Shown: one piece after another, positions 14,481 through 64,000 of the stretch | Layout: each line of letters starts with the position of its first letter | Numbering within the stretch: position 1 is the stretch's first letter | Assembly (NCBI GenBank): GCA_963664395.2 | Contig: OY761159.2 | Location: 4,616,280-4,680,279 of the forward strand | Length of the DNA stretch: 64,000 nucleotides | Direction of reading: 5' to 3' | From: Candidatus Binatia bacterium | Lineage (GTDB): Bacteria > Desulfobacterota > Binatia > Bin18 | Made by a program: the position numbers and the translations under genes | The notes under the pieces: generated by a model | Seen by the model: only the letters and a program-made list of their open reading frames with translations | Told to the model about the DNA's origin: nothing | Databases searched by the model: none

Positions 14481-14678
14481 GTGCTGCTGGCCGCCACCAT
14501 CAGCTTCGCCCTCTGGGACCGCCGCAGTATGCTTCGGCCCATTGAGGGTCGGGTGAAAAGTCTGGAAGAAGAGTTAGCCACCAATCGGCCCCATGTGCGG
14601 GCCCTGCTGGAATCCTTACGCAATCTCAGTCAGCGCGACCCCGAAGTCGCGGCCGTGCTGAAAAACTTTAATCTCTGA
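14481..14678 (+). CDS. Small hypothetical protein (possible membrane anchor plus coiled coil)
   Basis: 65-aa ORF in an otherwise empty 290-bp gap, with a GTG start. No family recognised. Confidence 0.25.
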   Translation: MLLAATISFALWDRRSMLRPIEGRVKSLEEELATNRPHVRALLESLRNLSQRDPEVAAVLKNFNL

Positions 14679-14696
14679 GTGACGAATCACTGTTCG

Positions 14697-16234: not shown

Positions 16235-16254
16235 GACACCAGTTCTCAGGCCGG

Positions 16255-17646: not shown

Positions 17647-17655
17647 AGCTGTCCT

Positions 17656-18915: not shown

Positions 18916-18936
18916 ACTACCCTCCTGGTCTTTCCT

Positions 18937-19665: not shown

Positions 19666-19679
19666 GGGGGTTTCTTGCG

Positions 19680-20324: not shown

Positions 20325-20346
20325 GGCGTGTCGGCAGGGCAGAGCC

Positions 20347-21123: not shown

Positions 21124-21195
21124 AATCTCTCCCTTTTTCGGTCACAGTCCTGTCAGTCAATGCGCTCCCCGTGTACCACATCCCCGGCAGCTTGC

Positions 21196-22101: not shown

Positions 22102-22115
22102 CCGGTTTCTCGCCT

Positions 22116-24202: not shown

Positions 24203-24374
24203 CCCCAACCCCTCTCCATTGCCTGACGTGAGGCAGCACCATAGCAACCCCTCCCCTAGTACTCAAGTAAACGCCTGAGCAGGAAGTTTGGTATTCGATA
24301 TCGCCGCGTGCGTCCGACAGGTATCGGAACGGCAGATATAAACGATTTCTCAATGTGGTTTTGGCAATACAGCC

Positions 24375-25844: not shown

Positions 25845-25863
25845 GCGCGGAAGTTTCTACAGC

Positions 25864-26796: not shown

Positions 26797-26824
26797 ATGA
26801 AGTAAAGCGTAAAATCTGACCCGT

Positions 26825-27859
26825 TCACGTTTCACGGCTAGAGAGCTCGTGCACCATGTCGACCAGCGCAATCACATTATCAACTGGAGTTTGCGGCAAA
26901 ATTCCGTGACCCAGGTTGAAGATGTGCCCTGCCCTGCCCTTGGCCTCGTCCAGGATACGTTGCACTTGCTTGCGTAGTTCATCCAGTGGAGCAAAAAGAG
27001 CCAATGGATCAAGATTCCCCTGCACTGCCCGATCTGCACCGATCCGCCGCCACGCGGCCTCAAGATCAACCCGCCAGTCTACACCAATCACATCCCCGCC
27101 CGCTTCGGCCAGAAGCTCCAGCAGGCCGGCTGTTCCCGTACCAAAATGGATGAGAGGGATGCCCGGCGTAATCCCTTGGACGAGCGTCTGCATATGGGGC
27201 AACAAATAGGTTCGATAGTCCTGGGGGGCCAGACAGCCTACCCATGAGTCAAAGAGCTGAATGGCCTGCGCACCTGCGGTAATCTGGCCATTCACATAGG
27301 CGGTGATCACACGAACCAGATGCTCCATGAGCGCGTTCCAGGCAGCCGGCTCCTGGTACATGAGGCGCTTGGTTTCCAGATACTGACGTGACGCTCCGCC
27401 CTCAATCAAATACGACGCGAGGGTGAAAGGCGCGCCTGAGAAACCGATCAAGGGGATGTGACTCGGTAAGCCACGGCGAATCTGCCGGACTGCCTCAAAC
27501 ACAAAAGGGACCGACTCTCCCGGCGGAACCTCTCTAAGAGAGTCAATATCTTTTCCTGAACGAACAGGACGGTGGATGACCGGCCCATCACCTTGGGCAA
27601 ACTCCAGCCCAACGCCCATTGGCTCAATAACGAGGAGGATATCGGAAAAAAGAATGGCCGCATCCACGCCGAGGCGTTCAACCGCTTCGATCGTCACTTG
27701 CGCGGCTAAATCGGGGGTCTTGCACAATGCGAGAAACGGGACGCGTTCGCGTAACGCCCGATATTCGGCCATATACCGCCCAGCCTGTCGCATGAGCCAT
27801 ACGGGGGTATGCGGGGTCGGCTCCCCCCGGCAGGCACGTAGAAAAACCGGCGTCTCCAT
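26825..27859 (-). CDS. hemE: Uroporphyrinogen decarboxylase
   Basis: PVWLMRQAGRYM signature. 344 aa. Confidence 0.95.
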   Translation of the reverse strand: METPVFLRACRGEPTPHTPVWLMRQAGRYMAEYRALRERVPFLALCKTPDLAAQVTIEAVERLGVDAAILFSDILLVIEPMGVGLEFAQGDGPVIHRPVRSGKDIDSLREVPPGESVPFVFEAVRQIRRGLPSHIPLIGFSGAPFTLASYLIEGGASRQYLETKRLMYQEPAAWNALMEHLVRVITAYVNGQITAGAQAIQLFDSWVGCLAPQDYRTYLLPHMQTLVQGITPGIPLIHFGTGTAGLLELLAEAGGDVIGVDWRVDLEAAWRRIGADRAVQGNLDPLALFAPLDELRKQVQRILDEAKGRAGHIFNLGHGILPQTPVDNVIALVDMVHELSSRET

Positions 27860-49341: not shown

Positions 49342-49426
49342 GCCGGAGTGGTGGAACTGGTAGACACATGGGACTTAAAATCCCATGGGGCATTGCCCCG
49401 TGCGGGTTCAAGCCCCGCCTCCGGCA
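49342..49426 (+). tRNA. tRNA-Leu (anticodon UAA), long variable arm, CCA not encoded
   Basis: Folded by hand. Acceptor GCCGGAG/CTCCGGC, D-arm GUG..CAC with GG, anticodon stem UGGGA/UCCCA with loop CUUAAAA, a 16-nt variable arm, T-arm GCGGG-TTCAAGC-CCCGC, and discriminator A. Confidence 0.9.
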
Positions 49427-49624: not shown

Positions 49625-50704
49625 CTAGTATTTCGCGATTACCTGTTCGGCAAAGTCTTTGTAGACCTCACGACTTGTTTTCAGCGGCGGCAGAAGAGAA
49701 ATTTCTCCAAGTCCGCCCTGCTCCGCCCGGCGGATATCAGCGATCAGTTCATCCGGTTCGCCGACCATGCACGATCCCTTGATCGTTTTCGGTGTAATGA
49801 ATTTTCGTTCCTCAGGGACATGATAGGTGCAGTGCCCATCATGGATCTGCAGATAGCGTTTCGCCTGAGGCGTTGCCATATTCTCTACCTGGTCACGATA
49901 CTCTTCCCAGACATCCTGGAACGCTTCGGGCACGCCGCTCTCATCCCCCGTTTGTTCATAAATTTCATACACAAAATGCAGGGCACAGGTGACCCAGGAG
50001 CCGCAGGCTTCAATCACACGATCGGAGGTTAAATCTTCTCCTGGTTTCAACACAACCGCATTTGTCAGGGCAGTCGTATGAAAATTCTCAGGCAATGTCC
50101 GCCCGGCTCGCTTGGCCCCGGCTTGCACCCGGCTTACATTCGCCTGTAATACCTCAGCCTGTTCGTTGAACAGCGAAACCAGTCCATCGCCAAACTCTCC
50201 CGCGGTTCGGAGAGCCAGCGGTCCATTGGCCGCAACGTAGATGGGAATCGGCTGTTCCAGGTCGATGAATTTAAGCTCTTGGTGCAAGAACTTGATCGTC
50301 CGTGTCGTTCCATTCAGTGTGTACTCAACCTCTTCACCACGCAGCAGCGTGCGGACCACCCGCAGGTATTCTCGAAAATCCCTGACCTTCATAGGCTGCA
50401 TGCCCATGACCCGCATGGCGGTATGACCAGTCCCAATGCCAAGGAAGACCCGCCCAGGAGCGATACGGTTAATCGAGGCAATGGAATGCGCGGTCACCGG
50501 GGCAATGCGTGTCCCAGGAATGGCGACCCCGGTGCCAAGACGAATGCGCGAGGTGTTCTGAGCGGCCAGCGCCAAGGTCGCATAACAGTCCGACCAGATC
50601 ATCTGAGAGTCAGGCACCCAAGCTGCGTCAAAGCCTAAATCCTCAACATATTTGAAGACTTCCCAGTTATCGATTTTGGTATGGGCGGTGATACTGAATT
50701 GCAT
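49625..50704 (-). CDS. LLM-class (luciferase-like) flavin/F420-dependent oxidoreductase
   Basis: VPDSQMIWSDCY...RIAPVTA...GIGTGHTAMR. Clearly a paralogue of 10699..11754. Confidence 0.85.
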   Translation of the reverse strand: MQFSITAHTKIDNWEVFKYVEDLGFDAAWVPDSQMIWSDCYATLALAAQNTSRIRLGTGVAIPGTRIAPVTAHSIASINRIAPGRVFLGIGTGHTAMRVMGMQPMKVRDFREYLRVVRTLLRGEEVEYTLNGTTRTIKFLHQELKFIDLEQPIPIYVAANGPLALRTAGEFGDGLVSLFNEQAEVLQANVSRVQAGAKRAGRTLPENFHTTALTNAVVLKPGEDLTSDRVIEACGSWVTCALHFVYEIYEQTGDESGVPEAFQDVWEEYRDQVENMATPQAKRYLQIHDGHCTYHVPEERKFITPKTIKGSCMVGEPDELIADIRRAEQGGLGEISLLPPLKTSREVYKDFAEQVIAKY

Positions 50705-50906: not shown

Positions 50907-52175
50907 ATGTTGTACCTATCGCATTGCTGTTCGATTTTCTTTCTGTATGCGGCCACTATCGGTATCTTCAGCGCTTGCAGCACCAGGCAAAGGGACACCC
51001 GCCTCGGCACGGAGCCCTTTCCGGTTGTAGCCCAGCCGGGCGCTCCATCTTCACCGCCGGCGCAACCGGAAATGAGCCTGACATCCGACCCGGAGGCAGA
51101 ACTGGCCTGGGAATTTTTGGCGGGCGTCGATGAGACAGGCATCATCCCTCATCCTCCAGTGGCCCCGCCCGTTCAGCCTGAGCCCACCGCCTCTCAGCCG
51201 GATGAAGAACTCAATGAAGAACTCAATGAGGAACTCAATGAGGAACTCCCCCCCCTCCTAGCGCTCGGTCCCCCTCAAGAAGAAAAAGCCTCGGGCTGGC
51301 TGGCTTGGGTGCCGGACTTGTCTCCGGACGAGTCCGGCACAAATGGAAATGCGCAGTACCGGACCGAGCAAGACCTCCTCAAGGTTGTCGCCGAGTTTCA
51401 GCGCGTGGCGGCAAAAGATACCTACCGCTTTCCTTTACCCAAAGATGTGACCGGAGCCAATGTGCATAAGGCGACACTCACCCGCATCCATGATTATGAA
51501 ACCAAACATCCGGGTGCCTATTCCGAGATTATCGCCTTCACCCGAGGGCGGGCCTATGAAGGGCTGCACGCCTATGAACGAGCCCTGGCCGAGTACCAAC
51601 GGGTAGCCCAAGGCAAAAGCCGACTCAAACACGAGGCCCGCCAAGCAGTCGAAGCGCTCACCGCCTTTCAGGCCCTCGCGCAACAGGTACCGACAGCCAC
51701 AACCGTGGGTGAGTATGTTCAGGCGCTTGACGAACACGGGCAGCGCTGGAGGGGCTTAGCCCAGCAGTATCAGAACACGCCCTATAGCGCCCTGGCGCGC
51801 GAAGAAGAGGAACGTCTTGACCAGGCGAAAATCGCCTTCTTTGCAATCAACCGCTACCGGATTGAGGATGGTAACGAGAGCGTTCTCTTGGCCTACCAAC
51901 AGTTACTTGATAAACATCGGGAGAGCAAAAACCGCTATCGGTATCGGATGGAGCTAGGGGATTTCTATGTTACGCTCGCCCATGAGTATATTGCCCAGAA
52001 CGATCCTGAAAGCTTACGTTTCGATTCCGACATCTTTGAAGCATTGGGACAAGCGGCGCTCCACCATTACGCGAGGGTTGCCCAAGAGGACGGCATCATG
52101 GAAAAACTTGAAGCCAAGGGCAAACTCGAAGCGCTTGAAGCCTATATGGCCAAAGTCGGACGTTTAGGACGTTAA
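50907..52175 (+). CDS. Hypothetical lipoprotein, helical/TPR-like, with an (EELN)4 repeat
   Basis: N-terminal ...IGIFSAC lipobox-like cysteine, a Pro-rich linker, and a helical C-terminal 300 aa. No family recognised. Confidence 0.55.
   Translation: MLYLSHCCSIFFLYAATIGIFSACSTRQRDTRLGTEPFPVVAQPGAPSSPPAQPEMSLTSDPEAELAWEFLAGVDETGIIPHPPVAPPVQPEPTASQPDEELNEELNEELNEELPPLLALGPPQEEKASGWLAWVPDLSPDESGTNGNAQYRTEQDLLKVVAEFQRVAAKDTYRFPLPKDVTGANVHKATLTRIHDYETKHPGAYSEIIAFTRGRAYEGLHAYERALAEYQRVAQGKSRLKHEARQAVEALTAFQALAQQVPTATTVGEYVQALDEHGQRWRGLAQQYQNTPYSALAREEEERLDQAKIAFFAINRYRIEDGNESVLLAYQQLLDKHRESKNRYRYRMELGDFYVTLAHEYIAQNDPESLRFDSDIFEALGQAALHHYARVAQEDGIMEKLEAKGKLEALEAYMAKVGRLGR
51204..51248 (+). repeat. 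12-bp in-frame tandem repeat (GAAGAACTCAAT-like) x3.75
   Basis: Encodes EELNEELNEELNEEL. Read directly. Confidence 0.9.
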
Positions 52176-52196
52176 GCCGTGCAGAAAGAAAACGGC

Positions 52197-54236
52197 ATGT
52201 GGTATCGTTTCATCCCGCTGCTCCTGTGTTTCCAGCTCCTGCCTGCATCCCCACTGCACGCTCGGGATTTCGCAGATCCGCTAGCCCGGCGCGTGACTGA
52301 GTTTTTGCCGGCCTATACCCCCTTTGTGCCACCGCTGCCTCCGGAGCGATATTTTCCGGATGAGGTCGGAGAGTACGTTGCCGACGCGATTATTGATGGC
52401 TACCTCCAAGACCCGTCAGCATTACGAGGCAGGATAGCGCAACTGGAGCGGCAGGATGCGCAACTCTCAGCGCAAGGAGATGAAGCAACCGATGTCATTC
52501 CCCTGGTGTATGCCCTGCTGTATCGGTCAATAGAGCACAATGGGCAGGAGTATCTCCCACTTGTTGAACTGAACGCGACGCCGGATGAAATTCTCTCTCA
52601 GGCGGACCAACTCTACGCCTCGGAAAAGCGCTACCGTATGGCCCGGCTGTTCAATTGGGTACTCTCGACCTTTGACGTGGCACGGCTGTTTCTCGGCGCG
52701 CCGGCCAGTCCCAGTCCATACGCGGCTCAAGGCGTAGTCTCTTCAGTCGGCCAACAGTCCGGGCCAAGTCCACGAGAGCGAAAGGCATTGGCCCTGTATC
52801 GTCTTTTCCTCGAACAAGCCCCGAATGATCCGCGTGTCCCGGAAGTCGAAACAAAAATGGAGGCCCTCGACACGAAACGAAAAAAGGCTGCCGTCCAGGC
52901 TGAATTGGCCCGGGCTGAGCAAGCATTCTCTGAAGAAGACTATTGGAAGGCCAATTTTTATTATCAACTCACCCTTCTTGTTGATGAAAACGCCGAGGAA
53001 GCCAAAGCCGGCATCCAACAAGTCGAAGCCCGCCTGCAACACTATGCCGCTCTCAACGCGCACGACCTACCCCAAGACCCACTGGCTGGTGTGAAACAGG
53101 CGGAGTGGGAGCACAGTAAGGAAACCTTGACCTATATGCTGCCAGGGAGCGGGTTTGTCAAAGACAATATTGTTGTGGCCGGCCTCCAGATCGGTACGGA
53201 GGGGCTTGTCGGCGCGGCCACCTTTGGGGGGCTGACCATGATCCAGACCTTGGGGAAACTGTGGCACGTCATGACCGGACGGGCCGTCTCCCGGCAAGGG
53301 ATTATTACTGAGGGCGAAAAATACTTGCAGCAGACCCCCTCAGAGGAGCGCGCTCCGGAGATCTACCCCATCCTGGCCAAAGCCTATGCGAAGGAAGGCA
53401 AGGTTGAGAAAGCCGTTCGGTATTATGCCTTAGCCGGCATGGAAGAAGAGATTCCCACGCTCCAGGAAAACGCGGCAGAAGCGCTGCTCGACCAAGCCAA
53501 CGCAAGTACGCATCAAACGGAGAAACAAGCCTACCTGCGTCGCCTGCTGGAGAGCTATCCCAAGACTGATGCAGCAAAGAAAGCGGCTGAAGAATTTCAG
53601 AAGGGCAGGCGGCCTGAAAACCAGGGGCTACAGCTCAGTAAGATGTTCTTGCGCGACAATCCGGACCTGTTTGGCACTCAGGGCCTTGGACTCAAAAGGG
53701 AACTGTATGATGGCAACTGGCGTAATATCGAGCTCACGGACGACGGGATCATCCTCTCCCCCCATGGCGACGTGACACTGCTGTTAGAAAGCGACGATGG
53801 TCCTCGAACCAAGGTATACAGTGTGCCAACGGCGGCGTGGCAACAGTTCTGGCGCACGTTCCGAGAAAAGGGCTATGAAGACGCTCTCTATCGCGGAGAC
53901 CGAAAAATTGCCAAGCTCGTCCAGGGGGCGGAGCCAGCAGACATCAAACTCAAGAGCGAGTTTGAAAAAAATGATGAAGACGGCTGGCGCGTCCTGCCTC
54001 ATCTGACCGGGAGTATGGGAGAAGGGTTTGACGTACGAGGGACTCTACCCAAAGACATCCTCGGTACCCGCCTTGCGTTTGGGAGAGACCGGCTCAGTAG
54101 CTATATTGGCATTGAAGTTCCCATGCCGCTCGTACCGGTTGATTTTCTCCTCCTCGGTCGCGACGGCCTGCCCTCGCTCTACCCACGCATTCGTCTTCCG
54201 GATCAGCATATCAAGGACGAGGAGTTGTACCGGTAG
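52197..54236 (+). CDS. Hypothetical secreted/membrane-associated protein (about 680 aa)
   Basis: Signal peptide MWYRFIPLLLCFQLLPASPLHA (an alternative GTG lies at 52179, 3 nt after the upstream stop). Central hydrophobic segment IVVAGLQIGTEGLVGAATFGGLTMI. No family recognised. Confidence 0.6.
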   Translation: MWYRFIPLLLCFQLLPASPLHARDFADPLARRVTEFLPAYTPFVPPLPPERYFPDEVGEYVADAIIDGYLQDPSALRGRIAQLERQDAQLSAQGDEATDVIPLVYALLYRSIEHNGQEYLPLVELNATPDEILSQADQLYASEKRYRMARLFNWVLSTFDVARLFLGAPASPSPYAAQGVVSSVGQQSGPSPRERKALALYRLFLEQAPNDPRVPEVETKMEALDTKRKKAAVQAELARAEQAFSEEDYWKANFYYQLTLLVDENAEEAKAGIQQVEARLQHYAALNAHDLPQDPLAGVKQAEWEHSKETLTYMLPGSGFVKDNIVVAGLQIGTEGLVGAATFGGLTMIQTLGKLWHVMTGRAVSRQGIITEGEKYLQQTPSEERAPEIYPILAKAYAKEGKVEKAVRYYALAGMEEEIPTLQENAAEALLDQANASTHQTEKQAYLRRLLESYPKTDAAKKAAEEFQKGRRPENQGLQLSKMFLRDNPDLFGTQGLGLKRELYDGNWRNIELTDDGIILSPHGDVTLLLESDDGPRTKVYSVPTAAWQQFWRTFREKGYEDALYRGDRKIAKLVQGAEPADIKLKSEFEKNDEDGWRVLPHLTGSMGEGFDVRGTLPKDILGTRLAFGRDRLSSYIGIEVPMPLVPVDFLLLGRDGLPSLYPRIRLPDQHIKDEELYR

Positions 54237-54274: not shown

Positions 54275-55831
54275 TTATGCATTCGCGGCGTAGAAGATAA
54301 ATTCCACGTCCCCGATACGGACGTTCATGCCATCTCTGAGAAGATTTTCGGAAACCTTTTTCCCATTAATATGGATTCCGTTTTTGCTTTGCAAATCGAG
54401 CAGCACATAGCCCTGTTTGACTTTTTTTATTCGAGCATGTTCACGCGATATGGATGAGTGCAGAATAATTGCCTCACATTCTTCTCCACGCCCAAATGTC
54501 ATCCCATCACGGGAAAACGCAATTTCGCGGGGCACTTCTTCAAATGGACTTTGGCGAACAAGGCGGGCGTACGGAGCGGATGTCCCGGGCACGACAGCAG
54601 CTGAGCTTTGATTCATGGAACTGGGGCCACCGGTTGCCGTCTTCAGCATACTCAGCACTTCGGCCGGAAGCTCAGGAATCTGATTGAGGCGAACACGCGC
54701 CAGTAAAATCAGTCCGCCAGCGGCTAGGAGTAGAATCACCCCATTCCACACCCCATAGACAACGACGGCTTGCGGGGTGGTTGCGCCAGGTCCTGAGCTG
54801 GTCGTAACGACTCGTGCGCCACCAATACCACGCACCTGGTAGGAAATACGCGCCTCCCCTTCCCCGTTCGGATGCTGAATGGTAAGCGCGACCTCACGTT
54901 CTGCCCCATCCTCGACCGGGCGTGGGCTGGTATACGTCAGGAAGTATTGCGACGCGAGCGAGCGGCCGATCTCACTAATCAGCTCAGGAAATCGTTCACC
55001 CTCACTGACAATATTATAGTGTCGCCCAGCGCTCTCCTTTGCGATCATATGCAGGTCGGGAGCCATAAAGGGCGGCGGAGAGATAGCAAAGACATTCAGA
55101 TTCGCCTTTTTAATCTCTGCCAATACCTCCGCGCCCGACACTTGCGTGACTTCCCGACCGTAGAGATTATTTTTTTCCGAGCCATCCCCGCGCGTATGAT
55201 TCGGTGCGTCGGTAATCAGGATGAGGACAGCCTGGGCGTCAGGCCGAAACGGAAAGCTGCAGGCCAGTAACATCGCATCGAGTGAGTTCTCCGGAATATC
55301 GCCTCCGCCTGCCGGACGCAGAGCGCCAACCCAGCTTTTGAACTCCCGGGCGCTCCGGGTAAACGCCCGCTCGTCCCGAATAACATAATCTTCAAAGGTC
55401 ACTAAACCTAAACGATAATCCCGGTTGGCCTTGGACAGGCGGTCGGCAAAATCGATGGTGGCTTCTTTCATGCCGTCAATGAACGGCCCCATGCTTTCCG
55501 TTACATCGAAGACTACTACGATATCGACAGGCCGGCCCTGCTGTTCCCCTCGGAAATCAATGATCTTGGCGTCCGTACCGTCCTCTTGCACTGTCACGTG
55601 CTCTGGCGTGAGTTGTCCGACCGGCTGCCCACGTAAATCAGTCGCATTGAAATACAGACCAACGGCACCGCCGTTAGTAAAATTCTCCAATTGGGGATTG
55701 GTGACAGATACGACCACTGAATCTGACGCAGAGACACTCTTCGTAAAAAACGAGAAGAAGGCCAGGCAATATATGAGCACCAGCACAGCGCTGGGATAGC
55801 TCTGCTGAGCGAGACGGTCATCCAGTCTCAC
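54275..55831 (-). CDS. Membrane protein: N-terminal anchor, vWA domain, TM helix, C-terminal FHA domain
   Basis: MIDAS VVVFDVTES, TM VWNGVILLLAAGGLILLARV, and FHA ...MTFGRGEECEAIILHSSISREHARIKK...NGIHINGKKV. GTG start at 55831, just after the upstream stop. The alternative ATG at 55906 would overlap the upstream gene. Confidence 0.8.
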   Translation of the reverse strand: MRLDDRLAQQSYPSAVLVLIYCLAFFSFFTKSVSASDSVVVSVTNPQLENFTNGGAVGLYFNATDLRGQPVGQLTPEHVTVQEDGTDAKIIDFRGEQQGRPVDIVVVFDVTESMGPFIDGMKEATIDFADRLSKANRDYRLGLVTFEDYVIRDERAFTRSAREFKSWVGALRPAGGGDIPENSLDAMLLACSFPFRPDAQAVLILITDAPNHTRGDGSEKNNLYGREVTQVSGAEVLAEIKKANLNVFAISPPPFMAPDLHMIAKESAGRHYNIVSEGERFPELISEIGRSLASQYFLTYTSPRPVEDGAEREVALTIQHPNGEGEARISYQVRGIGGARVVTTSSGPGATTPQAVVVYGVWNGVILLLAAGGLILLARVRLNQIPELPAEVLSMLKTATGGPSSMNQSSAAVVPGTSAPYARLVRQSPFEEVPREIAFSRDGMTFGRGEECEAIILHSSISREHARIKKVKQGYVLLDLQSKNGIHINGKKVSENLLRDGMNVRIGDVEFIFYAANA

Positions 55832-55841
55832 GGCAATCCCC

Positions 55842-56774
55842 CTATTCCTTCCCTGCCCGCTCTCGAAAGAGGAGTAGAGTTCCACCGACTTCAATCCGAT
55901 CGCCATTTTTAAGCTGGACTGATTGGGCAATCGGGGTCCGGTTGACGCTGACCTGCCCTTCGTTTTTGGCAAGCACAAATGTATGCTTGTGTTTCTCGAC
56001 CACGGCATGAAGATTGGCAATGGAACGGTCGCCAAACAGACCGACATCGCTTTCTTCGGCTCGGCCTATTGTGGTTTTGGGCTTAGTCAGATGATATTCA
56101 CGGCCTTCACGGACATTGCGGCTCTGCGAGCGAATCACCATAAACCAGCCGCGCTTAAACATCTCACTGACCAAGCCTATCCAGAGACCGATCATCGCTC
56201 CCAACAGGGCAAATGCAACCCCACGGCCGGCGGTCTGCGATAGCAGGGTGGTGACAATCTGAAAGAGCGCTCCGCCGATCGCCCCGCCGATGCATCCGCC
56301 AATCGCCCCATTGCGTAAACGGACCAGCGACTGGCCGACCCAGCCCGCTCCGAGCCCAACTGCGAGTCCAAAGAGTCCCCAGCCTATAGTGCGTCCGCCA
56401 AGACCACCAAACAGGCCAAACACCAGCTCTCCCATCAGAAGACCAACAGCACCACCCGCCAGACCGGCCAGCCCACCCAGCTTCACGCCTTGCCACGTCT
56501 TGTTCTTATGACCCGCACTGAGTCCTTCAATGGCACCGATGAAAGCGCCCACACAAATTCCAGTCACGGCGCCCAAGGCAATGGCCCGGAGATGGATATT
56601 TCCAACCGCGGCCAAAGGGTCAGCCGCGGCCCATCCAGCGATGCCACCCAGGAGCCCGGCCCCGCTATAGAGGACAAGTCGTTCGCGTGAAAGTTCCATA
56701 CTACTCCGCTGCTCAATGCACCACGTGTATGTACAGACAGCCGTCATGATACGGCCTAGAGTTGCAGTGACCAA
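55842..56774 (-). CDS. Polytopic glycine-zipper membrane protein with a C-terminal FHA domain
   Basis: About six Gly-rich hydrophobic helices (GGLAGLAGGAVGLLMGELVFGLFGGLGG...), then the FHA region TTIGRAEESDVGLFGDRSIANLHAVV...NRTPI. The start is uncertain (ATGs at 56774, 56747 and 56699). Confidence 0.75.
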   Translation of the reverse strand: MVTATLGRIMTAVCTYTWCIEQRSSMELSRERLVLYSGAGLLGGIAGWAAADPLAAVGNIHLRAIALGAVTGICVGAFIGAIEGLSAGHKNKTWQGVKLGGLAGLAGGAVGLLMGELVFGLFGGLGGRTIGWGLFGLAVGLGAGWVGQSLVRLRNGAIGGCIGGAIGGALFQIVTTLLSQTAGRGVAFALLGAMIGLWIGLVSEMFKRGWFMVIRSQSRNVREGREYHLTKPKTTIGRAEESDVGLFGDRSIANLHAVVEKHKHTFVLAKNEGQVSVNRTPIAQSVQLKNGDRIEVGGTLLLFRERAGKE

Positions 56775-59125
56775 TGTCCGCTCACGCTCTCGGACGACCC
56801 GACACTATACGTTCCGCTGAGTCGGTTTTCTTCACGCCAGCCGCGGAAATGATAGTCGCGATTGCCAATCCGACTTTGAAAGTCAATGTTATTATCCTGT
56901 AGGCTTCCTTCCAGAGAGGCGGCGCCGAAACCGGTCGCGTGGATCACCAAGTTACCACGTAACACCCCGTTACTGTGCGGTTGAAAATGCACCTCAAGAG
57001 GAACCTCACGCTCAGGACCCAGCCCGAGGATGCTCCCTTGGTGCGAGTTGAGGATATGGGCCAAGTCCCGATCATCGGTTACGGTAAATTTCTCGGGCGA
57101 GAGCGGGTAGCCGTTGACATAAAAGTCAACCTTGTAATCGCCGGGGGAAAAGGCGCTCCCACTGGCATTGCCGATTCTGGCAGTAAACGTCACCTTCTCT
57201 GTTGTATCCGAGACTTCTTTTCCCTCTTCGACCGTCCCGAGAATCTGGCCGTTGGGGGCATAATAGGTTGCGGTGACCCGGTGGTAAGAAGGCAACAGGT
57301 CATGGAGCTGGTTCTGAAAATCCGCCTCCCAGGCCACGAACCGGAGTTTGGATGCGCCAAACGAAGATGCGGATTGAGAGAGGCGGCTGCCATCTTTCGC
57401 GGTATTGAAAAAGCGGACGGAGACCAGAGAAAGCGGCTCCTTGCTCCGTTCCTGGATGAGGGCCAGCCGTTTTTCCTCTGCCGCACGCCCGGCGCGCTCT
57501 TCCTCCGGTGTCGGTCCAATGACTGCCGGGACATCAGCCCTACCAGCTACACCACCTTCTTCAGCATCGGCCTTTGCGACCTTGACCGGATCGGCTTCAA
57601 TCCGGACTGTTTGACTGGCCAGCTTGGCATCCCCGAAATAGAGCTCAAGCTGGTAATCGCCTGTGGCCCGCTCTTTGAGCCCCTCAAGCAGCGTCACGCC
57701 CCGGAGTTCAAGCTGTTCTTCTTCGGGCCGCACAAACCGGCCGGCTTCGCTTTTCCCAGCCAGCCCCCCCTCAGGATCGAAAAAGCGGCCCTCTATCCGA
57801 TAGTTCCCGCCTTCGACCCCGGACAACCTATTCTTCAGCACGGCTTCCCAGGTCAGGTATTGCACCTCACCAACTGTATAGCTTGCCTTGGCTTCCGACC
57901 GTGGCGTGCCGTCGCGCGAGGTATTCACTAGGCTGAGAGAAACGAGTTCGAGCGGATCGGCCCGTAGCGTGCGCAGGCGTTTCTCCCGCTCCCACGGCAA
58001 ATCCGCAACAAAAGCCCGGAACCCTGCACGCCGGGATTCCGGCAGCCAGGTTTCGAGCTGCTGCCAGGGAATCTTTTCTCCCAACTGCGCGATCGGATTA
58101 CCTTGCAGCAGTTCAGGGGAAGTCAACAGTCCATACGCTCCGCCAGTCATCAGCAGCAAAAAAACAAGGGCCGCAACCATACGCCCCCAGCGCCGTTTCT
58201 TTTGCGGCGGTGCGACGGTGAGGGGTTCCTCAACCGGCTCCGGCAAAGGCTCGAGAATCTGGGTCGCGGCTTGGGACGAGCTGGGAGATGGGGCCGCGCT
58301 CAGTCCGCGCCCATACAGAAACATGTCCTTAAACGCTTCCGCGCTCTTTGGCCGCTCTTCCGCTTTATACGCCAGGGTCTGGTCAATGGCTTGAGCCAGG
58401 AAGGGAGACGCGTCGGGCTTCTCCGAAAGCACCGGCGGACACGAGAACGGCGGATGTTTCTCGGGGTCACGGCCGGTCAGGATATAGTGCAGGGTTGCGG
58501 CCAGGCCATAAAGATCGGACCGTTCATCAACCTGTCCCGAGTATTGCTCGGGCGGGGCAAATCCGGGCGTGCCAATCAGGGTGGCTTTGCCTTGGGGAGA
58601 GAAAATTCTGGCAATGCCAAAGTCAATCAGCGTGATGCGCCCGTCCGGCCCGAGGATCACATTGCCCGGTTTCATGTCCCGATAGATGATGGGCGGAGAA
58701 AAGCCATGCAGATACGTCAGGACATCGCACAGTTCCCGGCCAATCTCGATGACCCGGCTCTCGGGGAGCCGACCGCCCAGTCCGGCGATTTCCTGCTCCA
58801 GATTGACCCCTTCGACAAAATCCATCACCAAATAATGGCAATTGCCTTCACCAAAGCGGTCAAAAATGGCGGGAATGGCCGGATGGGTGAGCTGGGCCAG
58901 CGTGTCAGCCTCGCGATGAAAATACTCGATTGCTTGGGCGCGCTCCTCGGGATTGGTGAACCGGTCAAAGATTTCTTTGATGGCGACACGCCGCTCGGCA
59001 AGACGCTGATCCTGGGCAATATAGACGACGCCCATACCACCGCCGGCCAGAAAGCGCTCGATCTGATAGCGCCCCGCCAGGGTCGTTCCAGGTTCAAGTT
59101 GACCGCTTTCGTTCCGCGACATCAA
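56756..59125 (-). CDS. Receptor Ser/Thr protein kinase (Hanks type) with one TM helix and a roughly 445-aa extracytoplasmic region
   Basis: AGGGMGVVY, VAIKEI, YRDMKPGN, DFGIA, GTPGFAPPE. TM VAALVFLLLMTGGAYGLL. Confidence 0.93.
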   Translation of the reverse strand: MMSRNESGQLEPGTTLAGRYQIERFLAGGGMGVVYIAQDQRLAERRVAIKEIFDRFTNPEERAQAIEYFHREADTLAQLTHPAIPAIFDRFGEGNCHYLVMDFVEGVNLEQEIAGLGGRLPESRVIEIGRELCDVLTYLHGFSPPIIYRDMKPGNVILGPDGRITLIDFGIARIFSPQGKATLIGTPGFAPPEQYSGQVDERSDLYGLAATLHYILTGRDPEKHPPFSCPPVLSEKPDASPFLAQAIDQTLAYKAEERPKSAEAFKDMFLYGRGLSAAPSPSSSQAATQILEPLPEPVEEPLTVAPPQKKRRWGRMVAALVFLLLMTGGAYGLLTSPELLQGNPIAQLGEKIPWQQLETWLPESRRAGFRAFVADLPWEREKRLRTLRADPLELVSLSLVNTSRDGTPRSEAKASYTVGEVQYLTWEAVLKNRLSGVEGGNYRIEGRFFDPEGGLAGKSEAGRFVRPEEEQLELRGVTLLEGLKERATGDYQLELYFGDAKLASQTVRIEADPVKVAKADAEEGGVAGRADVPAVIGPTPEEERAGRAAEEKRLALIQERSKEPLSLVSVRFFNTAKDGSRLSQSASSFGASKLRFVAWEADFQNQLHDLLPSYHRVTATYYAPNGQILGTVEEGKEVSDTTEKVTFTARIGNASGSAFSPGDYKVDFYVNGYPLSPEKFTVTDDRDLAHILNSHQGSILGLGPEREVPLEVHFQPHSNGVLRGNLVIHATGFGAASLEGSLQDNNIDFQSRIGNRDYHFRGWREENRLSGTYSVGSSESVSGHWSLQL

Positions 59126-59136
59126 CTAGCGCCTCA

Positions 59137-60882
59137 CTACTCGTGAAAGACAACGATCACTGAGGTATTATCGCTGCCGCCACCCGTATTTGCCGCAACG
59201 GTCAACTCCAAGGCCGCCTCGGACGGAGTACGGTGGCGACTCAAGATATCAGCAATCGCCGGATCAAGGACATGGCTGGTCAACCCATCGCTGCACAGGA
59301 GGAGTCGGACCCCTCGCTTGAGTGGCCGCGAGAGCGTATCAACCACAACATTTTCCTTGCTCCCCAAAGACCGAATCAGGACGTTACGGTGCTCGTGGGT
59401 CAACGCCTCTTCTTCCGTCAATTGGCCGATCTCGACCAGACGGGCGACCAAGGAATGATCGTGCGAGAGCTGCCGCAGTTCCCCATTTTCCAGCAGGTAG
59501 ACCCGGCTGTCCCCGACCCACGCCACCGTCAGTTGTCCGGCCCGGACCAGCGCAGCAACAATCGTTGCTCCCAGGCCGGCAGATTCTGGATGATCTTTCC
59601 CGTATTGGACAATTTTTGTATTGGCCGCCTCGACCGACTCACGTAAATGGGTCTCCCAGGCTGCCGCATCAAATCCCTCAACCCCCTTTTGCTGTCCAGT
59701 GGAGGCCCCCTCTCTCCTCAGCCCTCTCCCGCCAGAGGGGAGGGAAACGGTGGCTTCTTCAACATGCTGGGCCACAGTCCGAATGGCAATCTGGCTGGCG
59801 ACCTCACCGGCTTCGGCTCCGCCCATACCGTCTGAAACGATATAGAGTCCATTAAAATCATCGCCCTCTATGCTGCCTTGACCCACCTCTTTGACAAGAA
59901 CGGCATCTTCATTATGGTCGCGTACCTGTCCGACATCGGTCCGCCAGGCCGAGCGAATATGCACCGACTGACTCAGAGCGAGCAAGTCTTGTTTCAGGGC
60001 TGGCAGGTTCGGATAGCGCTCCCCGACCTCAAAGGCTAACGCTCTTCTTAAAACGCGCTCAAAATCGGGCGTCAGGACCTTCTCAGGATAGAATACTGGT
60101 GGCTCAGGCTGAACCGCCCAGCCTTCAATGGGTAAACGGCGCCCCACGAGAACGGCATACAGGCATGCGCCCAGAGCAAACACATCAGCAGCTTCGTGTA
60201 ACACTTGGGACTTATATGCCTCAGGCGCAGCATACCCATCCGTCAAAAAGGGACTCTCCTCAAGCGCGTCTTTCAGGCGTATGGCGTCAAAGTGGGTGAG
60301 GTGCAGACGGCCGGTCTTGTCGAGTATGATATTTTCCGGAGAAAGTTCAACACACAAGAACCCATGCCGGTGCAAAGCACTCACGGCCTGGCACAGCTGC
60401 ACGCCCCAGCCGGACGCCTCCCGCTCCGACGTCCGGCCCATGCGGCTACTCAGAGGGATACCGGACTGAGTCGGCGTAATGAGGTAGACCCGGCCATCAC
60501 GTTCCAGACTTTCCTGCGGGAGGATGAGAGCCGGGTGGTGAATCGCGGCAAGCTGCTCGGATAGCTCAAACGCACCACCCGCGTCGGTCTGGTCACTTAA
60601 TCGTTCAGCTATAAGATAGGTCTGTCCGGCGTCAGTCTGACGAACCGCCTGGTAGCGATTTTCCTGTCCGGTCGAGAGGATGGATGTGAGGCGATAGGTA
60701 TCAGCGAGGATTGTGCCTGGCGTCAGTGGTTCAAAGAGGGAGACCGAAACGCCCCCTTCTTCAAGCGATACGCCACAGGCAGTACAAAAAATTTCTCCAA
60801 GCACATTGGCTTGTCCGCACTCAGCACAAACAAGGCTCTCCTCAATGTCTATAGGCTCGGTCATCAGAGGCGCAGAACCCAT
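59137..60882 (-). CDS. Zinc-ribbon / degenerate kinase-like domain / PP2C phosphatase fusion protein
   Basis: CAECG...CTACG. The kinase-like region has VAIK->YQAVR, HRD->CVELSPEN and DFG->HFD. The PP2C region has VRDHNEDA, SDGMGGAEAGEVAS, LCSDGL and GGSDNTSVIVV. Confidence 0.85.
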   Translation of the reverse strand: MGSAPLMTEPIDIEESLVCAECGQANVLGEIFCTACGVSLEEGGVSVSLFEPLTPGTILADTYRLTSILSTGQENRYQAVRQTDAGQTYLIAERLSDQTDAGGAFELSEQLAAIHHPALILPQESLERDGRVYLITPTQSGIPLSSRMGRTSEREASGWGVQLCQAVSALHRHGFLCVELSPENIILDKTGRLHLTHFDAIRLKDALEESPFLTDGYAAPEAYKSQVLHEAADVFALGACLYAVLVGRRLPIEGWAVQPEPPVFYPEKVLTPDFERVLRRALAFEVGERYPNLPALKQDLLALSQSVHIRSAWRTDVGQVRDHNEDAVLVKEVGQGSIEGDDFNGLYIVSDGMGGAEAGEVASQIAIRTVAQHVEEATVSLPSGGRGLRREGASTGQQKGVEGFDAAAWETHLRESVEAANTKIVQYGKDHPESAGLGATIVAALVRAGQLTVAWVGDSRVYLLENGELRQLSHDHSLVARLVEIGQLTEEEALTHEHRNVLIRSLGSKENVVVDTLSRPLKRGVRLLLCSDGLTSHVLDPAIADILSRHRTPSEAALELTVAANTGGGSDNTSVIVVFHE

Positions 60883-60941
60883 GCATCACCAGTCCAGTCA
60901 ATTCCAGCAGTTTAGGCAGTTCCAGAACGGCCAGCGCAGCC

Positions 60942-61607
60942 TCATGGCACGCGCGAGACCTTGAAAAAGGTTTTGCCGACGATGATCTCATCCCCGTCTT
61001 TGAGGGTAGCCGGTGAGCCTGGCTCAAGACGTTGGCCCCTGTTGACAAACGTCCCGTTCAGGCTCCCAATATCCTCAATCGTCAACTCATCGCCGAATTT
61101 TATCAGCGCGTGTTTTCGGGAGATACGCGCTTCCGCATCATCATTTTCCATATCAACTTCAGGGAAAGAACCGGAATCCGGGTCCCACCGACCAACCAGA
61201 TTATCTCCTGCTTGGAGCTCAAAAACCTTACCCACCGTTCCGCCACGGGTGATGGTGAGAGAAGCGCTCCCGGCTGCACCTTCTGTTCCTTCTGTTCCTT
61301 CTGAGCCTGGACCCTCGCTTGGTGCGACGTCTCCGGGTGCTTCTTCAGGGGCCGGTGTAGGAATATCTCCAACCGCCTCAGCCGCAGGTTCTTCTGCAAC
61401 GGCCTCCGGACTTGTCTCACTTGCCCCACTTGCCGCACTTGCTGCACTTGCCTCAACTCCGGCAGGAGCTTCCTCCACGGCTTCGCTGTCAGGTGCGGCG
61501 GGGGCTTCGGCACTCTCCGTCGCTATGACTTCAAGTTTCGCTCCGCAGCTATCACAGTACTCCAGACCATCCATGTTTTCTTCATTACATTCCGCACAGC
61601 GAATCAT
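60942..61607 (-). CDS. Zinc-ribbon / acidic low-complexity linker / FHA domain protein
   Basis: MIRCAECN...YCDSCG, then an Ala/Glu/Pro-rich linker, then FHA LVGRWDP...ISRKHALI...GSLNGTFVN. Confidence 0.85.
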   Translation of the reverse strand: MIRCAECNEENMDGLEYCDSCGAKLEVIATESAEAPAAPDSEAVEEAPAGVEASAASAASGASETSPEAVAEEPAAEAVGDIPTPAPEEAPGDVAPSEGPGSEGTEGTEGAAGSASLTITRGGTVGKVFELQAGDNLVGRWDPDSGSFPEVDMENDDAEARISRKHALIKFGDELTIEDIGSLNGTFVNRGQRLEPGSPATLKDGDEIIVGKTFFKVSRVP

Positions 61608-61662
61608 GCTCGTATCTCCTTCATTGACCTCATTGCTGAACCGTTACCCTTCACGGGCGAGC

Positions 61663-62952
61663 TTAGTCTTGCAGGGCATCTTTGACGCTCTCGGGATCAA
61701 GAAGTTGCGTTTTTCGTAAGGTTGCCTGAGCGTTGAGCAACTGGGTTTTGGCCGCCCCGGTCGCGAGACTCTGTGTTTTCTTCAATTCACTCTGGAGCCC
61801 TTCGAGCGCTTGGGTTGCCTTCGTGTTCCCAAGTCGTTGGGTTCCGGCTATGGCATTGCCCAACAATCGCGTGGCTTTGTCGGTATTGCCGGCAGCCATA
61901 GCAGCCTCAGCCTGCATTTGGATCTTGGCGACGCTGACTTGATCAACGAGATTCATCACATAGCCGTTCGCCTTGCCAATGGAAGCTCGCTCAAGCGTAT
62001 AGTTCACCACAACGTCCACGTTTTCGTGTTGGTTCTTGGCCTCAGGCGTATCGTAATGCAGCCCGGCCTGAGCGAGCCGGACCCGACCGGGGCGGCGGGG
62101 CGGTAAGACTAACACTGCCAATGCCGAACTTGGCGTACCCGCTTCAATATCTCCCAACGGGAGAGAAATAATCCGATTGGCATCGGGCGTAATATCTTTA
62201 ATCGGGTAAATCTGAGGACTGGCGCGAAAGGCTTCTTTCACCTGCACCCCAGCGCTCAGTTGCACCTCAATACGCGCATTGGTCAGTGCGACATTCCGAA
62301 GTCCCTGGAGTTCGCTGGAAAAAATATCCGGAATTGAGGCCGGGGTATCAATAAAGTGATAATTGGACCCGCTCGCCTCCGCCATTTCCATCAGCAGTTT
62401 TTCATTAAACTCGCCGCCCACGCCGAGTGTGCTACACGAAATACGGTCACGATGCTGACGGGCGAGATCGAGACATTTGCGCTCCTCATACGTCTGACCA
62501 TCGGTCAGGAGCAACAGCCGGTTCAGGCGGTTGGGCGAATAATACTTCTCGACCTCGGCAAGCGCCGCTTCCATCCCCAGCGCCATTTGTGTTCCGCCCC
62601 CGATCTCCAACAGATCCAGATCGTCAATGGCTCGTTTCACACCGGATGCATCCGCAGCCACCCGGTCTGCCGTTGCCGCAACGTCTGCCTTGTCTGCAAA
62701 CGCGACCACCGCCGCCTTGTCATCCGGACCAAGATTATCAATCAGATATTTGACGGCATCAATGACATAATCAAGCCGCTGTTCATCATACATGGAACCG
62801 CTCCGGTCAAGCACAATGCCGAGATTGAGAGGCAGGCGCACGCCCCCGCCTTGCGGCTTTGTCTCCATGAGCAGGTACAGGATAAAATTTTCTGCGCTGC
62901 TCAGCACGGCATTACGGCTTGTCAACGCTTGGAAACCAACAGCAGCAGACAC
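61663..62952 (-). CDS. von Willebrand factor A (vWA) domain protein with a helical C-terminal region
   Basis: MIDAS IVLDRSGSM, LLTDGQT. Start set at the GTG at 62952, preceded by AAAAAGGAG. The track ORF begins at a TTG at 62973. Confidence 0.8.
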   Translation of the reverse strand: MSAAVGFQALTSRNAVLSSAENFILYLLMETKPQGGGVRLPLNLGIVLDRSGSMYDEQRLDYVIDAVKYLIDNLGPDDKAAVVAFADKADVAATADRVAADASGVKRAIDDLDLLEIGGGTQMALGMEAALAEVEKYYSPNRLNRLLLLTDGQTYEERKCLDLARQHRDRISCSTLGVGGEFNEKLLMEMAEASGSNYHFIDTPASIPDIFSSELQGLRNVALTNARIEVQLSAGVQVKEAFRASPQIYPIKDITPDANRIISLPLGDIEAGTPSSALAVLVLPPRRPGRVRLAQAGLHYDTPEAKNQHENVDVVVNYTLERASIGKANGYVMNLVDQVSVAKIQMQAEAAMAAGNTDKATRLLGNAIAGTQRLGNTKATQALEGLQSELKKTQSLATGAAKTQLLNAQATLRKTQLLDPESVKDALQD

Positions 62953-63060
62953 GAGAGGCTCCTTTTTTGCCAAGAGAATTGTTCAGAAGAATTGTTGAAT
63001 TTTTATCTCACGTTTTTTCCCCAGGAGCAATATAACTACCCGCGAATTCTTGCGGCCTTA

Positions 63061-63549
63061 TTACTCCGGCTTCCGAAACTGGTCGTGACAGCCCTTACAC
63101 GTTCCGAACATCTTTTGCATATGTTCCTTGACTGCAGCGGCATTGTTTTCTCCTGCGGCCACGGCAAGCGCGTCAGCTTCTGTACTCAGTTCTGTGGCTG
63201 AGGCGAGAAAAGCGTCCCAGTTCTGCCAAATTTCTTCTTTCGCCCGAGAGGAGTCTGACGTGCTGCCCTCCGGAAAGAGCCCTGCGATCCGGGTGGAATG
63301 AAGGGCTATGGCGGCGGCATTCATTTTTGCCTCTTTGAGTGTACCGGCATCGATCTTGCCTTTCATCTCCTTGGCATTGGCCCCAATATTCTCCATCAGA
63401 TACTCGCGAAACGGCACCGCCTGCTGAGGGTCCGGCATATGGGTGGGATGATTTTCATGCCCAAAACTCGACCCACTATGCAGACAACTTGCCACCACAA
63501 CTGCGCTGACCAAAGCCATACGGACCACACGTTTGACCCGACCTTTCAT
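63061..63549 (-). CDS. Cytochrome c' / class II c-type cytochrome
   Basis: Signal peptide, a helical bundle-length protein, and a single C-terminal CKGCH haem-binding motif. Confidence 0.8.
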   Translation of the reverse strand: MKGRVKRVVRMALVSAVVVASCLHSGSSFGHENHPTHMPDPQQAVPFREYLMENIGANAKEMKGKIDAGTLKEAKMNAAAIALHSTRIAGLFPEGSTSDSSRAKEEIWQNWDAFLASATELSTEADALAVAAGENNAAAVKEHMQKMFGTCKGCHDQFRKPE

Positions 63550-63607: not shown

Positions 63608-64000
63608 TTACTGTTCTGACTCCCAGGTAGAAAATTTGGGAGCAACCGATTTGAGATATTGGGCAACCGCCTGCGCATCTTCATCTGTCATGTCTTTGTA
63701 CCCGCCTCCGGGTACCCCATCAATCACCAAGGCCATCAGCCCTTGGACGTTATCAAAATTCGGGAGAAAACCGGTGCGCAGCAGCGAGACGATTTCCCCT
63801 TCGCTCCACTGCCCGATACCCGTTTCGTCATCAGGGGTAATATTGGGAGCGACCTCGCCGTCAATACCCGCCGGATTGCCAGCTAAATTTTGCGCACGGT
63901 CGAGGGTGCCAAACACCGTGCGCGGCGTATGGCACTCCTGGCAATGGGCGAGATGTTCACTGATGTAGCGACCTCGGGCAACCGGGTCTGCCCTTGCAAG
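63608..64000 (-). CDS. c-type cytochrome (partial; N-terminus lies beyond the window)
   Basis: Manual extension of the frame to the window edge gives ...GRYISEHLAHCQECHTPRTVFGTLDR... (CxxCH). Confidence 0.75.
   Translation of the reverse strand, partial: LARADPVARGRYISEHLAHCQECHTPRTVFGTLDRAQNLAGNPAGIDGEVAPNITPDDETGIGQWSEGEIVSLLRTGFLPNFDNVQGLMALVIDGVPGGGYKDMTDEDAQAVAQYLKSVAPKFSTWESEQ

Follow-up and report, generated by a model that had tools for sequence, protein, structure and literature searches.

A conserved and expressed six-gene vWA/FHA/Ser-Thr kinase/PP2C cluster in a sponge-associated Candidatus Binatia bacterium, with archaeal ArnA/ArnB as its closest characterised relative

We analysed a stretch of 64,000 nucleotides (nt) from a Candidatus Binatia bacterium (assembly GCA_963664395.2, contig OY761159.2, positions 4,616,280 to 4,680,279 of the forward strand; hereafter the window), and in it six adjoining minus-strand genes at 54275-62973 that we name g1 to g6 in the order of their transcription. 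Together they are a conserved, expressed variant of the combination of vWA, FHA, serine/threonine kinase (STK) and PP2C domains, and archaeal ArnA/ArnB is their closest characterised relative. On balance we favour the reading that the six genes probably form one self-contained, two-layer Ser/Thr phospho-signalling unit working by the mechanism proposed below. The genes are:

g1, 61663-62973, minus strand: cytosolic vWA protein, by its model ArnB-type, without a transmembrane (TM) segment (Pfam VWA)
g2, 60942-61607, minus strand: ArnA/FraH-like adaptor, C4 zinc ribbon plus FHA (Pfam FHA, DZR)
g3, 59137-60882, minus strand: zinc ribbon plus pseudokinase plus PP2C (Pfam, NCBIfam)
g4, 56756-59125, minus strand: receptor Hanks Ser/Thr kinase (Pfam Pkinase, E = 3e-29)
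g5, 55842-56699, minus strand: polytopic glycine-zipper membrane protein with a C-terminal YscD-like FHA domain, 285 amino acids (aa)
g6, 54275-55828, minus strand: signal peptide or anchor plus vWA plus TM segment plus FHA, 517 aa (Pfam VWA_4, VWA, FHA)

Domains were assigned with Pfam and NCBIfam models, defence models were run with PADLOC and RNA elements sought with Rfam; TM segments and topology come from a hydropathy scan. A first, sequence-only reading of this DNA had described six co-directional minus-strand genes with gaps of 11 to 59 nt or overlaps. All six open reading frames (ORFs) are present on the minus strand in the ORF list of the window, and the gaps hold: with corrected starts they measure, from g1 to g6, 55, 59, 11, 56 and 13 nt. 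The overlaps were an artefact of taking the longest ORF and disappear once g5 is started at ATG 56699 and g6 at GTG 55828, as in the gene calls of the related locus L001 (285 aa and 517 aa). The parts list of that reading matches the domain models, and its topologies agree with the hydropathy scan.

Related loci are denoted by L numbers; their gene contexts come from exact look-ups, a single scan across GTDB species genomes, a tblastn search in which every window protein was run against 85 loci, and ORF clustering. At least seven independent loci (L001, L002/3, L004/5, L006, L008, L087 and L088; tier 1) hold all six genes in order. L002/3 are labelled Binatia, and L004/5/8 and L088 are Methylomirabilota-type; the proteins of L001 and L006, from genomes of 4.6-5.2 Mb labelled Candidatus Binatia, are ~78-91% identical to those of the window. 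Genomes with all six genes in order thus bear the labels Binatia, Methylomirabilota and "Desulfurellaceae"; the last label is that of a NadA cluster member. A second tier comprises ~20 metagenome-assembled genomes of Binataceae or "delta proteobacterium" with the core of g1, g2, g3, g4 and g5, where a soluble STK-FHA fusion lies between g2 and g3 (L013 7583-9286; also L011 and L019) and a ~260-aa lipoprotein follows g5 where g6 would stand. Sericytochromatia and cyanobacterial loci form a third tier and hold only the kinase, g3 and g2. The search with g3 returned 5459 homologues at E <= 1e-10 among 8000 scored candidates, generic PP2C matches included; where contigs are long enough, full-length g3 always stands alongside g1, g2, g4 and g5. 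The best-conserved protein of the cluster is g1, with 77-91% identity overall and 77-80% between lineages whose g3 is just ~55% identical. The cluster is not a chance assembly, for at least seven independent loci have its six genes in this order and ~20 more have the core. The doubt that had been attached to the sequence-only reading, that the six genes might not be conserved together, is thereby removed: their order is kept across phylum-level labels.

The cluster is also represented in RNA. The DNA runs contain the stretch at 0.99 of the sampled words, and one RNA run of the same sample is a sponge metatranscriptome; the organism is therefore a sponge associate. RNA-derived contigs come from unstranded assemblies of four other metatranscriptomes and match the window at 95-100% identity. 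Every gene junction of the cluster is bridged by such contigs:

60239-63154 (contig X26): bridges g3, g2, g1 and the upstream cytochrome c' gene
58140-60236: bridges g4 and g3
55708-57054: bridges g6, g5 and g4
54786-56221: bridges g6 and g5
62216-63398 (contig X25): bridges g1 and the cytochrome c' gene

This bridging is consistent with one polycistronic mRNA. The promoter/terminator scan was uninformative: terminator-like sites on the coding strand were all intragenic, none intergenic, and rarer than in shuffled sequence. Rfam, run on the whole window, returned one tRNA only, and no riboswitch or leader by the cluster.

The first two genes encode a soluble pair. In the PDB, the sequence of g1 matches 4FX5 (E = 2.5e-8, aa 53-388), 5A8J (the ArnB paralogue vWA2) and 8S05_A. 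Its AlphaFold2 (AF2) model has a predicted local distance difference test score (pLDDT) of 75, which falls below 50 over the last ~35 residues. The top four Foldseek matches of this model (template-modelling scores 0.55-0.71, E = 1e-23 to 8e-20) include 4FX5 (0.70/0.71), ArnB itself in 8S05 (0.63/0.71) and vWA2 in 5A8J; the next fold is far weaker, by eight orders of magnitude (2e-12, score 0.36), and Sec23/24 comes lower in the list. As modelled, then, g1 is an ArnB-type three-domain protein made of a vWA domain, a beta-sandwich and, at the C-terminus, a helix bundle. Its metal-ion-dependent adhesion site (MIDAS) is intact (DRSGS, T128 and D158, invariant in 16 sequences). The g1 tail (61699-61872, aa 368-425) contains six invariant threonines, T368, T378, T387, T400, T410 and T422, each followed at +3 by an invariant Leu (in one case Leu/Ile); five of them read TQxL. 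This pattern is conserved in 16 sequences and across tier-1 and tier-2 loci. The background rate of TQx[LIMV] is 0.78 per 1000 aa; of the six proteins, g1 has it five times, g4 once and the others not at all. By analogy with ArnB, whose helix bundle is phosphorylated, the tail threonines are candidate sites of multiple phosphorylation and FHA docking. A hydrophobic residue three positions after the phosphothreonine (pThr) is favoured by many FHA domains.

The neighbouring g2, separated from g1 by the 55-nt gap, opens with a zinc ribbon (aa 4-25, CxxC...CxxC) that is near-invariant in tiers 1-3 and resembles the ribbon of g3; an acidic Ala/Glu/Pro-rich linker follows. Its FHA domain has the canonical pThr-binding residues (GR, SRKH, NG). 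In the PDB, g2 matches GarA/OdhI and, weakly, ArnA (5A8I, 8S05_C). In metatranscriptome strains the low-complexity acidic linker is shorter by 18 nt through an in-frame deletion (at 61426).

The layout of g3 is a zinc ribbon (aa 19-37), a kinase-like domain (~aa 55-310) and a PP2C domain (aa 315-578), and the protein scores 224 bits on the Stp1/IreP model. When 13 homologues are aligned, the Gly-rich loop, the VAIK Lys, a conserved HRD Asp and DFG are all missing from the kinase-like domain; the position of HRDLKPxN reads CVELSPEN and is variable. The PP2C signatures RDHNED, DGMGG, GDSR, DG and GGSDN are invariant in the same alignment. Because the kinase motifs are lost and the phosphatase signatures are all kept, g3 is a pseudokinase fused to an active-looking PP2C, as had been proposed from the sequence alone. 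Its PDB matches are tPphA, Stp1, PstP and, at 2e-23, PppA (6jkv). In L087 (9522-11296) g3 is called as two genes, one for a 112-aa N-terminal piece and one for a 431-aa pseudokinase-PP2C, through either a frameshift or a truly separate zinc-ribbon protein. On pseudokinase-PP2C fusions, the literature searched yielded only a PP2C survey that notes Pkinase and zinc-ribbon fusions without characterising them.

In g4 all Hanks motifs are kept within the catalytic domain (aa 20-270; GxGxxG, VAIK, YRD...N, DFG, PPE). The domain is followed by a juxtamembrane motif, ATQILEP (58247-58267), which includes T288 and is conserved in the family as (A/S)T(Q/R)xLEP, by a single TM segment (aa 316-334, 58124-58180) and by an ectodomain of ~450 aa (aa 336-789, 56759-58120). 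In a set of 5.8 billion proteins this ectodomain has 64 homologues, nearly all of them in the same kinase, and by its sequence it is an orphan sensor domain. The AF2 model (pLDDT 82.5) shows a short helical region, two beta-sandwiches with a long helix and a disordered linker between them, and one small beta domain. Foldseek returned only generic Ig/FnIII/MG-like matches to it (RbmA, complement C3, transglutaminase; whole-chain template-modelling score ~0.2), and no vWA was found in it by Pfam, in the AF2 model or by Foldseek. Within the cluster, the metatranscriptome runs diverge most from the window, or cover it least, at 57005-58400 in the g4 ectodomain.

The last two genes encode membrane proteins with FHA domains. 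The earlier count of three FHA proteins stands for g2 and g6, whose domains are canonical; the g5 domain is not. In g5 the Ser of SxxH is replaced by Ala and NG is absent, both losses being shared by the family; the Arg of GR is unconserved in 34 family members, and among Pfam models Yop-YscD_cpl outscores FHA in this region. With the SxxH Ser and NG missing and a YscD-type model fitting better, g5 is probably not a canonical pThr reader. Ahead of this domain lie four to five Gly-rich TM segments whose Gly pattern is conserved in the family. The g6 protein has an N-terminal signal or anchor, a beta-rich segment with a vWA domain, one TM segment and an FHA domain; the MIDAS is intact (DVTES), the FHA domain canonical (GR, SxxH, NG), and the predicted topology puts the vWA in the periplasm and the FHA in the cytoplasm.

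Natural fusions link these membrane proteins. With g5 as the query, exhaustive phmmer searching gave 913 representative clusters at E <= 1e-10, and several family members of 735-903 aa, from several 50%-identity clusters, consist of a g5-like N-terminus followed by vWA and FHA, that is, of g5 and g6 in one chain. A g5-g6 fusion is also called in L088 (801 aa) and in L004. Further, in the protein P0179 (L086 405-2390) a TM anchor and a periplasmic vWA of the g6 type are fused with two parts of the g4 ectodomain, its second beta-sandwich and its terminal domain. Both kinds of fusion support the earlier suggestion that a periplasmic vWA with a cytoplasmic FHA domain serves as a receptor. The P0179 gene sits in an unrelated locus, beside a HicA toxin gene and the gene of a zinc-ribbon protein.

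Gene content and order, conservation, folds, motifs and expression in situ are what the data show; the scheme that we infer from them, with its ligand, its phosphorylation and docking steps and its output, has two layers. In the membrane, g4, g6 and g5 would act as a three-protein receptor for the input. An extracytoplasmic cue, presumably a MIDAS-bound ligand sensed by the vWA of g6 together with the ectodomain of g4, would switch on g4, which would then autophosphorylate at sites including the juxtamembrane T288 (TQIL), and the FHA domain of g6 could dock on phospho-T288. In the cytosol, g2 would already be bound to g1 through its zinc ribbon; once the g1 tail was phosphorylated, the FHA domain of g2 would clamp it and bring the g1-g2 complex into another conformation or oligomeric state, as in Sulfolobus ArnA/ArnB. 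Reset would fall to g3, whose pseudokinase and g2-like zinc ribbon may direct the PP2C domain to the kinase, to g1 or to both. The output would most likely be the assembly state of g1-g2, with the free MIDAS face of the complex binding a partner. In keeping with the sequence-only reading, the output is not readable from the window.

Several points weigh against this reading. The conserved core lacks a gene for a DNA-binding domain, an enzyme or any other component of output, and the fold of the g4 ectodomain points to no ligand class. The threonine motifs of g1 lie in predicted helices and may be structural, heptad-like repeats and not phospho-sites, and one of the three presumed readers, the g5 FHA domain, lacks the pThr-binding residues. 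The similarity to the archaeal pair is low, g1 and g2 being just 16-19% identical to Sulfolobus ArnA/ArnB (E ~1e-6), and the ArnB fold itself is widespread in all domains of life and "mostly not involved" in multi-phosphorylation according to its authors (PMC12852372). As to expression, the RNA contigs are unstranded, DNA carry-over is possible, and one contig also joins the convergent ends of g6 and of u685, the neighbouring gene described below. Finally, the roles of all six proteins are read from sequence and models.

Upstream of g1 stand two genes for haem proteins:

63061-63549, minus strand: cytochrome c' (class II), C-terminal CKGCH, signal/lipoprotein leader (PF01322, E = 3.9e-25)
63608-64000, minus strand: 3' part of a c-type cytochrome gene, truncated by the end of the window, with a CQECH haem motif in the translation

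In the related loci the c-type cytochrome is ~290-330 aa long and lies directly upstream of cytochrome c'. The two genes precede g1 in the window, L001, L002, L004, L006, L008 and L088, under three phylum-level labels, usually with a divergent MlaD gene. Cytochromes c' bind nitric oxide (NO) and carbon monoxide, and the cluster could be a sensor of envelope or periplasm homeostasis tied to redox or NO, with the cytochromes (and the divergent MlaD) in the same unit and the receptor reporting on haem proteins or on an outer-membrane lipid system. The order MlaD (opposite strand), cytochrome c, cytochrome c', g1-g6 is kept in the window lineage and in the Binatia and Methylomirabilota loci, the gap between cytochrome c' and g1 is 87 nt, and contigs X26 and X25 span that junction. 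However, L087 has the six genes without cytochromes, ~20 tier-2 loci have the core without cytochromes or g6, the gap widens to 295 nt in L002, and in L004 a small ORF on the opposite strand lies between cytochrome c' and g1; shared ancestry or block transfer would be enough to keep the synteny without any functional link. We consider this explanation unlikely, if the least so of those that depart from a self-contained unit. An obligatory cytochrome link was rejected on account of L087 and the tier-2 loci, and the cytochrome pair is treated as a lineage-specific companion of the cluster.

A bolder version of the self-contained unit would take up the same companion genes. In it, a bacterial ArnA/ArnB (Sec23/24-like) switch would be hard-wired to the three-protein receptor and, in the sponge-symbiont, Binatia and Methylomirabilota lineage, co-transcribed with cytochromes c and c', so that a Ser/Thr kinase would sense periplasmic redox or NO and g1-g2 assembly, dependent on phosphorylation, would be the readout. 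This we regard as speculative and quite unlikely.

The cluster might instead be a TerY-P-type conflict or anti-phage system, in which the switch made of vWA, PP2C and STK would free g5 as a membrane-damaging effector. TerY-P triads are known, and modules resembling them act in defence (PMC10542128). Pore formation is conceivable for glycine-zipper membrane proteins, the kinases match PADLOC kinase models, and the tier-2 homologue of g1 rises above the cutoff of the vWA-TerF-like Pfam model (31.1 against 29.4 bits). But the g1 of the window stays below that cutoff at 18.7 bits, PADLOC has no match for g1, g2, g5 or g6 and only generic kinase/PP2C models for g3 and g4, and it is g2 and g3, not the kinase, that carry the zinc ribbons. 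Moreover, the surroundings are housekeeping genes with a similar G+C content (GC), expression in situ is apparently steady, and the fixed gene order and the 77-91% identity of g1 across distant lineages are unlike patchy, fast-evolving defence islands. A defence role is thus improbable.

A regulator of envelope growth and division, like the mycobacterial fhaA-fhaB-pstP-rodA-pbpA-pknA-pknB locus with its membrane FHA proteins and MviN-like pseudokinase scaffold controlling peptidoglycan synthesis, is a still poorer fit. In the MviN-FhaA pair of Mycobacterium tuberculosis a pseudokinase domain is a phospho-scaffold for an FHA protein, which counts in favour of this explanation, as do the weak matches of g2, g5 and g6 to the FhaB/FipA model and of g4 to the kinase-domain part of the PknB_PASTA model (NF033483). 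These matches lie far under the cutoffs, however: 18-39 bits against 125 for FhaB/FipA (37-39 bits being the values weighed here), and 171.7 bits against 450 for NF033483, from the kinase part only. There are no PASTA domains, no rodA, pbpA or ftsW near any locus, and the two vWA proteins have no counterpart in the mycobacterial locus, so that we think this very improbable.

The weakest alternative is a PpkA/PppA/Fha-type pathway gating a type VI secretion system (T6SS), or another secretion machine, whose genes would lie in some other part of the genome (for the pathway, see PMC3953482 and PMC5995506): the domain set of Hanks kinase, PP2C, FHA and periplasmic vWA is the same, the g3 PP2C matches PppA at the E value given above and the g5 and g6 FHA domains match the YscD cytoplasmic-domain model, but that PP2C is nearer to tPphA and Stp1, the kinase ectodomain holds no vWA, the FHA proteins score 30.1 (g2), 25.4 (g5) and 32.2 bits (g6) on the TagH model TIGR03354 with its cutoff of 120.25, and no secretion genes were found in the 64-kb window, where the absence of adjacent T6SS genes had already been remarked, or in the 20-kb surroundings of >25 related loci, which leaves this explanation hardly credible.

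We return to the self-contained phospho-signalling unit and to its setting. The sequence-only reading had called the six genes an island, which is a misnomer: the cluster has a GC of 0.54-0.59, the same as the rest of the window, its neighbours are housekeeping genes and its synteny is stable. A mobile island was rejected on the grounds of GC and neighbours. Other large ORFs of the window encode Lon, phosphoglycerate kinase (PGK), M16 peptidases, 2-oxoacid dehydrogenase E2/E3, HMG-CoA reductase, topoisomerase subunits, a DEAD helicase, NadA/NrtR, Dus, MutL, MutS, an acyl-CoA dehydrogenase and EF-G. On the g6 side, at 50907-54236 (plus strand) and convergent to g6, are the genes of two large proteins without a clear family. 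The first has 422 aa and an acidic region of NEEL repeats; the second, u685, has 685 aa, a signal peptide and a weak YbgF/TPR-like match. Both are kept beside the cluster in L001 and L006, and the 685-aa protein is encoded ~5 kb away in the Binatia locus L002. Just past these two uncharacterised flanking genes, at 49625-50704 (minus strand), lies a gene for a luciferase-like oxidoreductase of the F420/FMN-dependent LLM family, with another at 10582-11754 (plus strand). The tRNA gene is at 49342-49426 (plus strand). A long co-directional run at 13383-27859 (minus strand) includes the genes of HMG-CoA reductase, an amine-oxidase/desaturase-like flavoprotein and the 2-oxoacid dehydrogenase E2 and E3; the presence of the first of these in such a bacterial setting may point to a pathway of the mevalonate type.

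Signalling by bacterial Hanks kinases is known mostly from a handful of models (PknB, the T6SS pathway, Myxococcus), and we found no paper that describes this cluster. Its carriers (sponge symbionts, Binatia, Methylomirabilota) are uncultivated and ecologically important. The hypothesis is explicit, naming six candidate threonines, one putative juxtamembrane site and a defined reader and eraser, and the genes could be expressed heterologously. If it is correct, the logic of ArnA/ArnB would be packaged in bacteria as a full operon that also supplies a receptor kinase, a phosphatase and membrane co-receptors, and a zinc-finger-FHA reader that clamps a multiply phosphorylated helix bundle, studied so far in Sulfolobus only, would have a bacterial counterpart.

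Among known systems, the T6SS threonine-phosphorylation pathway (PpkA, PppA and Fha/TagH of Pseudomonas and Agrobacterium), to which the sequence-only reading had compared the cluster, is a loose analogue. It shares a receptor Hanks kinase, an antagonistic PP2C, an FHA reader of pThr on a membrane component and a periplasmic vWA in sensing. The vWA is on the kinase there and on a separate FHA protein (g6) here, where a cytosolic ArnAB-like layer is added; the low TagH scores also set the cluster apart, and ArnA/ArnB is closer.

Generic modules of vWA, STK and PP2C, with or without FHA, come nearer. In Deinococcus radiodurans the DRA0331-DRA0334 operon encodes a vWA protein, an STK, a FraH-like FHA protein and a KI-FHA-PP2C, with push-pull regulation of kinases in vitro (bioRxiv 10.64898/2026.01.23.701218). 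Compared by description, the same four domain types stand in one operon and a docking domain lies N-terminal to the PP2C, KI-FHA there and a pseudokinase with a zinc ribbon here. The Deinococcus kinase lacks a large ectodomain and bears three TM helices at its C-terminus, and FHA proteins of the g5 and g6 types are absent there. The TerY-P triad unites a TerY-like vWA, a PP2C and an STK with a zinc ribbon (Anantharaman et al. 2012, as cited in PMC10542128); by the description there, the C-terminus of its kinase is fused to a zinc ribbon or OB fold, and ter, restriction or defence genes accompany it. As in the cluster, a cytosolic vWA stands with a PP2C and a Hanks kinase, whose genes here (g3 and g4) adjoin with 11 nt between them. 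Both modules include zinc ribbons, and the prediction that TerY-P is a metal/MIDAS-linked phosphorylation switch is a further likeness. On the other hand, the cluster has no ter genes and no restriction or CoCoNuT partners, its vWA has no PADLOC match, its zinc ribbons are on g2 and g3 and not on the kinase, and the C-terminus of g4 is a periplasmic beta-rich ectodomain; three FHA proteins, a transmembrane receptor layer and the housekeeping context also separate it from TerY-P.

The closest known system is archaeal ArnA/ArnB, the switch that regulates the archaellum in Sulfolobus, since g1 folds like ArnB and g2 has the architecture of ArnA. ArnB has the same three-domain fold, the zinc finger of ArnA contacts its beta-sandwich and C-terminal domain (PMC6509490, PMC12852372), and the Hanks kinase ArnC phosphorylates a threonine cluster in its helix bundle, after which binding by the ArnA FHA domain tightens the loose complex (PMC6509490, PMC7472852, PMC12852372 for the fold and the switch). 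The best match of g1 in both sequence and structure is 4FX5, Caci_2163 of Catenulispora acidiphila, a bacterial protein of this three-domain ArnB fold (PMC6509490) and a structural-genomics entry without assigned function. In both systems adjoining genes encode a zinc-finger-FHA protein and a three-domain vWA protein whose helix bundle carries a threonine cluster, acted on in Sulfolobus by the Hanks kinases ArnC/ArnD and the phosphatase PP2A. Here only the prerequisites of such a phospho-tail switch are seen in the sequences, namely six invariant T-x-x-L motifs, in a regular TQxL repeat that differs from the Sulfolobus system, and an adjoining, active-looking Hanks kinase. The cluster is bacterial and not crenarchaeal, and has no archaellum; kinase and phosphatase share the operon, with a PP2C-pseudokinase fusion in the place of PP2A; and the kinase, a receptor, bears a large ectodomain and is joined by two additional membrane FHA proteins, one with a predicted periplasmic vWA. 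The six genes thus belong to a known kind of system and not to a new one, with ArnA/ArnB as its nearest described member.

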